From Candidatus Thorarchaeota archaeon SMTZ1-45 (GTDB lineage Archaea; Asgardarchaeota; Thorarchaeia; Thorarchaeales; Thorarchaeaceae), in the NCBI GenBank assembly GCA_001563335.1, contig LRSL01000043.1, positions 1-22,278 of the forward strand: 22,278 nucleotides of DNA. Direction: 5' to 3'. The position numbers and the translations under genes are program-made. The number at the start of each line of letters is the position of its first letter. The stretch's first letter is position 1. The notes below the pieces were generated by a model. That model did not search any database. It saw only the letters and a list, made by a program, of their open reading frames with translations, and was not told the origin of the DNA. Shown in pieces: positions 1,182-1,575 of this stretch.

Positions 1182-1575
1182 ACAGAGTTGTCGCGCGCAA
1201 GAGTTCATATCGACCGCGCGGCTTGCTTCCTCGATGTCGGCTCTTGGTATCCTCGGGTTGCATAAGGCCCGAAGGGTGCGGGTGCTCACCGATTAAAACC
1301 GAACGTGAGCTGGGTTTAGACCGTTGCGAGACAGGTTGGTTTCTATCTATTGGTACTGTTGGATGTCTGCGCTGAATGCATCTAAGCGTGAAGCCAGACT
1401 CAAAAATAGACATCCACTTGCTAGACGATCTGTAACAGACGATGGGACTGGCGACAGTAACGTCGAAGTCTAGGAACGAGGACTCTCGTAGAAGACGAGG
1501 TAAATAGGGCGGGGGTGTAAGCACCGAGCTTCGGCGAGGTGTTCAGCTCACCGCTACTAATGTCCGAGGCGTGCA
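1182..1575 (+). rRNA. rrl: 23S rRNA, 3' exon (A2451 to 3' end; end approximate; H95-H96 apparently absent)
   Basis: CAAGAGTTCATATCGAC, CCTCGATGTCGGCTC, GTGAGCTGGGTTTAGACCG, GCTGAATGCATCTAAGC, CGTAGAAGACGAGG, GGTGTAAGCACC...GGTGTTCAGC...CTACTAA match conserved 23S domain V/VI segments. Confidence 0.93.

Follow-up and report, generated by a model that had tools for sequence, protein, structure and literature searches.

A 102-nucleotide gap spanning the sarcin-ricin loop in a Thorarchaeota 23S rRNA gene is probably an error of assembly

Results

The contig opens inside an archaeal 23S rRNA gene

The window, by which we mean the whole stretch of 22,278 nucleotides analysed here, is the entire contig C43 of the metagenome-assembled genome (MAG) of Candidatus Thorarchaeota archaeon SMTZ1-45 (G000). 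This MAG comprises 3.54 Mb in 119 contigs, with a completeness of 87.72% and a contamination of 5.82%, and it comes from marine sediment that is also home to several close relatives. The contig opens with the 3' third of a 23S rRNA gene (Table 1), the 5' part of which is missing because the contig start cuts the match to the Rfam model RF02540 at position 2167. The covariance-model score of this match, obtained with cmscan for positions 1-1579, is 413.8 bits (E 6.6e-128), above the gathering threshold of 50, and assigns the gene to the archaeal large subunit (LSU) rRNAs. A search of the whole of G000 with the same model gave no match, which we regard as a miss, since the initial filter of that search can overlook an rRNA that is truncated and contains an intron.

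Table 1. Features of the 23S rRNA gene at the start of the window.
Feature	Position	Strand	Basis
23S rRNA gene, archaeal, 3' third	1-1579	+	RF02540 positions 2167-2987
Intron of 793 nt in the peptidyl-transferase-centre region; boundaries slide by 2 nt	388-1180	+	801-nt insert relative to the model
LAGLIDADG homing-endonuclease ORF in the intron, 238 aa	446-1162	+	PF14528 LAGLIDADG_3, E 4.7e-09
H94 outer 5' strand, last bases before the gap: GGATGTCTG	1361-1369	+	Sequence check, RF02540 alignment, G014 alignment
Junction, 102 nt absent: inner H94 strand, H95 (sarcin-ricin loop), H96, outer 5' strand of H97	1369-1370	+	RF02540 and relatives
Inner H97 hairpin and 3' strands of outer H97 and inner H94, partners lost	1370-1406	+	RF02540 and G014 alignments
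H94 outer 3' strand: TAGACATCC	1407-1415	+	Sequence check, RF02540 alignment
ES39-type expansion at the H98 position, 59 nt inserted relative to the archaeal model	1417-1475	+	Common to congeners

The intron lies within GGGGUAAC/AG, a stretch in the peptidyl-transferase centre, and its ORF scores 36.8 bits against PF14528 (cut-off 22.5). An intron-less joint, from 387 to 1181, is present in contigs of all four sequencing runs described below (X1, X2, X3 and X15), and, among seven congeners that cover the site, one (G009, ca. 88% identical) has the intron and six are contiguous across 389/1181. Downstream of the gap, the size of the insertion at the H98 position fits the ES39 of Thorarchaeota, for which PMC7594248 gives 50-60 nt.

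Similarity to relatives reaches beyond the end of the 23S gene, to ca. position 1665. The final 25-75 nt of the gene (window ca. 1503-1579) have extra matches in several congeners besides the main 23S match (three places on G002:C33, two extra places on G012:C34, and G001:C15 and G017:C133), which may reflect either duplication of the 3' end or a short element that is repeated. The spacer 3' of the gene also contains an imperfect direct repeat of ca. 60 nt (1603-1660 and 1889-1945, 286 nt apart), built from the blocks TAGAGTTGTC ... AGAAAAAG ... CCATCCTTTGT ... ATTTTT, and this repeat may be a processing or terminator-type element.

The gap removes the sarcin-ricin loop and cuts through two helices

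A reading made from the sequence alone had reported that ca. 100 nt of the 23S rRNA are missing at 1369/1370, with the 5' strand of H94 running straight into the hairpin of H97. All the strings that it named lie where it had placed them, including the hairpin CGCTGAATGCATCTAAGCG at 1370-1388, and the size of the gap is exactly 102 nt against 11 relatives. Inside H94, the window has only 29 nt (11+11+7) aligned by cmscan to a region of 122 model positions (31+54+37). The same reading had named H95 and H96 as the missing part; both are indeed absent, but the inner strand of H94 and the outer 5' strand of H97 have gone with them. As deduced from the comparison of the congener G014 with RF02540, the cut falls off the helix boundaries: four inner nucleotides of the 5' strand of H94 are also removed and, in H97, only the inner hairpin is retained, the outer 5' strand being lost, so that, in terms of the standard structure, the 3' partners within 1391-1406 are left without pairing. 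Unlike the cut observed here, a tidy reduction in the course of evolution should take out whole helices. The truncated H94-H97 region has a stable predicted fold (-19.8 kcal/mol, z -3.16), to which we gave no weight.

The claim that the sarcin-ricin loop is absent from the rRNA region held in a motif search with AGTACGAGAGGA, which, allowing up to two mismatches, gave no match in that region, and in the covariance alignment, which does not place H95 anywhere within the existing sequence, although it is present in the relatives. The sole match of the motif in the window, at 15214, is at chance level, since 1.21 matches are expected and at least one match occurred in 73 of 100 shuffles. The word proposed for finding the loop was less fortunate: the loop is truly absent, but in this genus it reads GGTACGAGAGGAAC instead of beginning with AGTAC, and the exact word therefore misses even intact copies.

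The remainder of domains V-VI is paired and conserved, with high posterior alignment to RF02540 outside the gap in cmscan. In the exons, six window-unique substitutions occur at sites that are invariant in the other sequences, two of them forming a compensatory pair (C196/G216), and each of six congeners scored in the same way has 2-15. The number in the window being within the range of its relatives, the gene is under normal constraint apart from the gap, which agrees with the sequence-only reading, where the rest of the gene looked well paired rather than decayed. We thus found neither the excess of substitutions at conserved sites nor the broken pairings outside the deletion that characterize an rRNA pseudogene.

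The cut points do not share an in-register repeat, their microhomology being 0-2 nt; up to 50 nt away from them, the longest repeats measure 6-10 nt and are out of register. A TGTCTGA(GAG) repeat of 7-10 nt, from the left cut to H96, was considered and rejected, because it would yield a different deletion, of ca. 58 nt. The gap is therefore due neither to repeat collapse nor to slippage.

Relatives contain the 102-nt block in place

We used positions 1184-1579 of the window to search 41 genomes, comprising G000 and 40 relatives, 24 of which belong to the same genus. In every relative with both halves of the query on one contig, the query was split exactly at 186/187, corresponding to 1369/1370 of the window, with ca. 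102 extra bases between the halves. Alignment of 11 relatives, nine of them from the same genus, located a block of 102 nt with GGTACGAGAGGAAC exactly between 1369 and 1370 in all 11; the block also contains CGGTACGAGAGGAAC in each of them, and its flanks are up to 99% identical to the window. The 23S rRNA of G014 aligns to RF02540 continuously across H95, H96 and H97, and in G005 and the metagenome contig L119, whose flanks are 97-100% identical, the block is likewise in place.

A 28-nt word across the junction had no matches in the metagenome_contigs collection and none in genome_contigs, a search that may not have covered the window's own records. The control word for the intact form was found at 120 or more loci in each of the two collections. 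Among the 240 of these loci that we examined, ten had a Thorarchaeota-type left flank, and in all ten the flanks were separated by exactly 102 nt; two of these loci belong to the same set of species as the relatives and may duplicate genomes already counted.

In looking for signs of a chimera, we compared the nearest relatives on the two sides of the junction, which was uninformative because L119 and G005 are close on both. The congeners G017, G014 and G016 are ranked differently in exon 1 and in the 3' part, but these regions differ in variability.

The sarcin-ricin loop reads CGGUACGAGAGGAAC in 11 of the 11 aligned relatives and in 10 of the 10 further Thorarchaeota-type loci (for instance, L013:1707-1721; alignment columns 91-105). 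It differs from the Rfam consensus UAGUACGAGAGGAAC by a G in place of an A (GGUAC versus AGUAC), a lineage-wide substitution that stands beside the universally conserved core.

Contigs of the sequencing runs enter the missing block from both sides

Part of window 1-4000 is contained in 20 sequencing runs, the fractions of sampled words present being 0.93 for X1, 0.75 for X2 and 0.67 for X3. We aligned the Logan contigs of X1, X2, X3 and the RNA run X15 to window 1-2700, a level of evidence at which rare variants are dropped. X2 and X3 look like a single data set, as judged from the same lengths of their contigs, and X1, X2 and X4 may belong to one campaign.

Two contigs of X1 match the window without any difference, one of 887 nt that spans the intron (360-1246, depth 7.7) and another of 3116 nt on unique downstream DNA (1542-2700, depth 9.69). 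These exact contigs on the intron and on unique DNA indicate that X1 contains this genome. At the gap, two contigs of X1 match up to 1369 and then continue with ATGGCAAGATGATGCCGGTACGAGAGGAAC, that is, into the sarcin-ricin loop, and one contig each of X2 and X3 likewise continues past 1369 into the loop, for 8 letters. From the other side, two contigs each of X2 and X3 enter 1370 from the end of H96 (...CTGTCGAGTAGCTAAGTCGTAACGGATAAA), with an upstream sequence that ends in ...GTAGCTAAGTCGTAACGGATAAA. Among the pieces listed, no contig of X1, X2, X3 or X15 bridges 1369/1370, which does not prove that the reads lack the junction. Two further joints, one from 1253 to 1371 in an RNA contig of X15 and another from 33 to 133 in X1, were read as belonging to contigs of other organisms.

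The rRNA sequence to the right of the gap also differs between the window and the runs. The differing positions listed (1433-1462) are covered in X1 by a single contig, of depth 7.39, which is a variant with five other letters and one gap over 1403-1521, and X2 and X3 contain there a variant with two mismatches. Variants thus occur in this stretch, whereas the unique DNA to its left and right matches exactly; the contig therefore does not have its 3' rRNA stretch in the form seen in X1-X3, and, compared with X1, its rRNA part is a patchwork. By rough arithmetic, the 7% of sampled words that are missing from X1 would roughly correspond to the loss of all words from ca. 1340 to 1541 plus two single upstream mismatches, as would fit a lack of the junction words in the X1 contigs. 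Over the conserved exon, the summed contig depth of all the congeners is 58-150, a type of value that is unfit for ranking.

The missing piece was not found elsewhere in the MAG

The sequence-only reading had also suggested looking for the loop and for other 23S copies in the whole assembly. A blastn search of the 119 MAG contigs with the H95-H96 segment and flanks of a congener matched the two flanks on C43 and nothing else, and ca. 2.1 kb of 23S rRNA plus flank from each of two congeners matched C43 only, identifying no other 23S piece in these contigs. It should be considered, however, that rRNA genes are often unassembled, and that a MAG with 87.7% completeness may have an intact 23S copy elsewhere.

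The loop motif gave one exact match and 18 with one mismatch in the MAG, in total 19, versus 22 for a reversed control. We inspected two of these matches by eye and rejected both as copies of the loop: the exact AGTACGAGAGGA on C54 sits in an apparent coding gene, and a match to GGTACGAGAGGA on C70 appears to be coding sequence. The former, which is the sole exact occurrence in the genome, is on the minus strand around 1300-1720 of the locus G000:C54:36786-39797, and the gene, by eye, possibly encodes a Ras/Rab-type small GTPase, fitting an Asgard archaeon.

Discussion

The sarcin-ricin loop is essential for the activation of the GTPases EF-G/EF-2 and EF-Tu/aEF1A, and a 23S rRNA lacking it would therefore be lethal as the sole copy. 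Our results indicate that the 102-nt gap is probably an error of assembly that is absent from the working 23S rRNA of the organism; like every relative, the organism most likely has the block in its real gene. Neither the independent assemblies of the two collections nor the relatives showed the junction, the form being intact in 11/11 relatives and 10/10 further loci, and contigs of the runs enter the block. We infer that the intact form seen in the runs belongs to this very genome, although the contigs bearing the loop could also stem from co-occurring congeners.

Assembly collapse had been put forward as the likeliest cause. An assembly problem fits the intact relatives, the unique junction and the contigs that enter the block, but collapse does not, because there is no in-register repeat at the cut; this same lack of a repeat points instead to a misjoin or to a path through chimeric or rare reads. 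The locus is fragmentary in this MAG, where the contig begins well inside the gene and the other 23S pieces are absent. The contig starts inside the rRNA gene of a Thorarchaeota MAG, in a region of low coverage that is tangled by strain variation, and in the conserved 3' part of this gene the assembler path would have left the true sequence at 1369 and re-entered it at 1370. The route might have been provided by a few chimeric or rare reads, or by the end-to-end joining of two contigs, and the outcome would be the dropping of the strain-variable H95-H96 block.

Chimeras and misassemblies are known for rRNA operons in MAGs, where they usually show up as strain chimeras or as a lack of rRNA genes. 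The window resembles these cases in that the contig breaks inside the 23S rRNA gene, its rRNA differs from that of the run in which it is best represented, and the anomaly is found in one assembly alone, with many congeners in the same samples. Unlike them, it shows a clean internal omission of 102 nt without a repeat at the cut. This is also an argument against an artefact, because without a repeat a de Bruijn assembler needs either real junction reads or a later joining step.

For this reason, a real deletion has to be weighed, although we consider it fairly unlikely. The DNA would have suffered a recent loss of 102 nt, either in one rRNA copy or, if the population is polyploid or mixed, in a minority of its chromosomes or cells. 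A dead allele would then exist alongside intact ones, and the assembler would have followed the deletion as a bypass of the strain-tangled H95-H96 region. With a microhomology of 0-2 nt, the junction k-mers would come from actual molecules unless they were joined after assembly, and the undecayed flanks fit a very recent event. Additionally, record 20 of X2 and record 28 of X3 are contigs that start exactly at 1370, as a second predecessor of this position would predict, and these starts could reflect a graph branch from a variant bearing the junction. Nevertheless, no listed contig of the four runs bridges the junction, the junction word is missing from two collections, the relatives with both flanks are all intact, and a second 23S copy was not found in the MAG. 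The depths in X1 of the intron and of the downstream flank, albeit contig depth is a poor measure, do not give any sign of an extra copy either.

A split LSU rRNA, in which the genomic 23S rRNA would lack H95-H96 and a piece from a separate, unassembled locus would assemble in trans, appears very improbable. Natural fragmented rRNAs exist, such as those resulting from bacterial intervening sequences or from the split rRNA genes of organelles and protists; in these, no core piece has lost its gene, and the arrangement is conserved within the lineage. The window is similar to them in that one piece of the mature rRNA does not adjoin the others, and the 12% of the genome that is unassembled leaves room for an unlinked piece. 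It differs from them because no piece was found in the MAG and the lineage is contiguous: the congener segment retrieved only the two flanks on C43, the matches to the loop motif are at the level of the control, with the two inspected in apparent coding genes, and G005 and L119, with nearly identical flanks, have the piece in place. Moreover, the cut breaks the pairings of H94 and H97 instead of leaving clean helix ends. The proposal that the loop is encoded elsewhere is thus left without support.

In Pyrococcus furiosus, the permutation of the 23S rRNA is reportedly an RNA-processing event at H98, the gene being collinear and complete. The likeness to the window lies in the unusual handling of the 3'-terminal domain of an archaeal LSU rRNA, and we do not claim membership of the same class; in the window, it is the DNA itself that lacks H95-H96. 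Unusual processing of archaeal LSU rRNAs, as exemplified by this circularly permuted 23S rRNA (PMC7758197), might be invoked in favour of a split rRNA. Were the split real, an Asgard archaeon would have a divided LSU rRNA among relatives that are all contiguous.

Finally, a functional ribosome without the sarcin-ricin loop has a negligible probability: nothing speaks for it beyond the sequence itself and the stable predicted fold of the truncated region, and against it are the presence of the loop in all the relatives examined and the partner strands that the deletion leaves unpaired. To our knowledge, the sarcin-ricin loop is universal and essential, and none of the papers listed in our search of the literature on this loop and Thorarchaeota concerns a missing loop.

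The closest known counterparts of the gene include the intact 23S rRNA genes of G005, G010, G014 and other congeners and of the metagenome contig L119. They have in common with the window flanks that are 97-100% identical, the ES39-type insertion, the H97 sequence and the GGGGUAAC variant of the peptidyl-transferase centre; unlike the window, they contain the 102-nt H95-H96 block, and the LAGLIDADG intron is absent from six of the seven congeners covering that region.

As a true and sole copy, an rRNA that lacks the sarcin-ricin loop would overturn a universal of translation, which is almost certainly not the case here. The case illustrates that a clean internal omission can arise in the rRNA of a MAG without a repeat at the cut, and it calls for caution, because the rRNA stretch of this contig is unsuitable as it stands for studies of rRNA structure, phylogeny or comparisons of expansion segments in Asgard archaea. 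In all, the gene in the window is most likely an ordinary 23S rRNA of its Thorarchaeota genus, minus an omission that is specific to the assembly.
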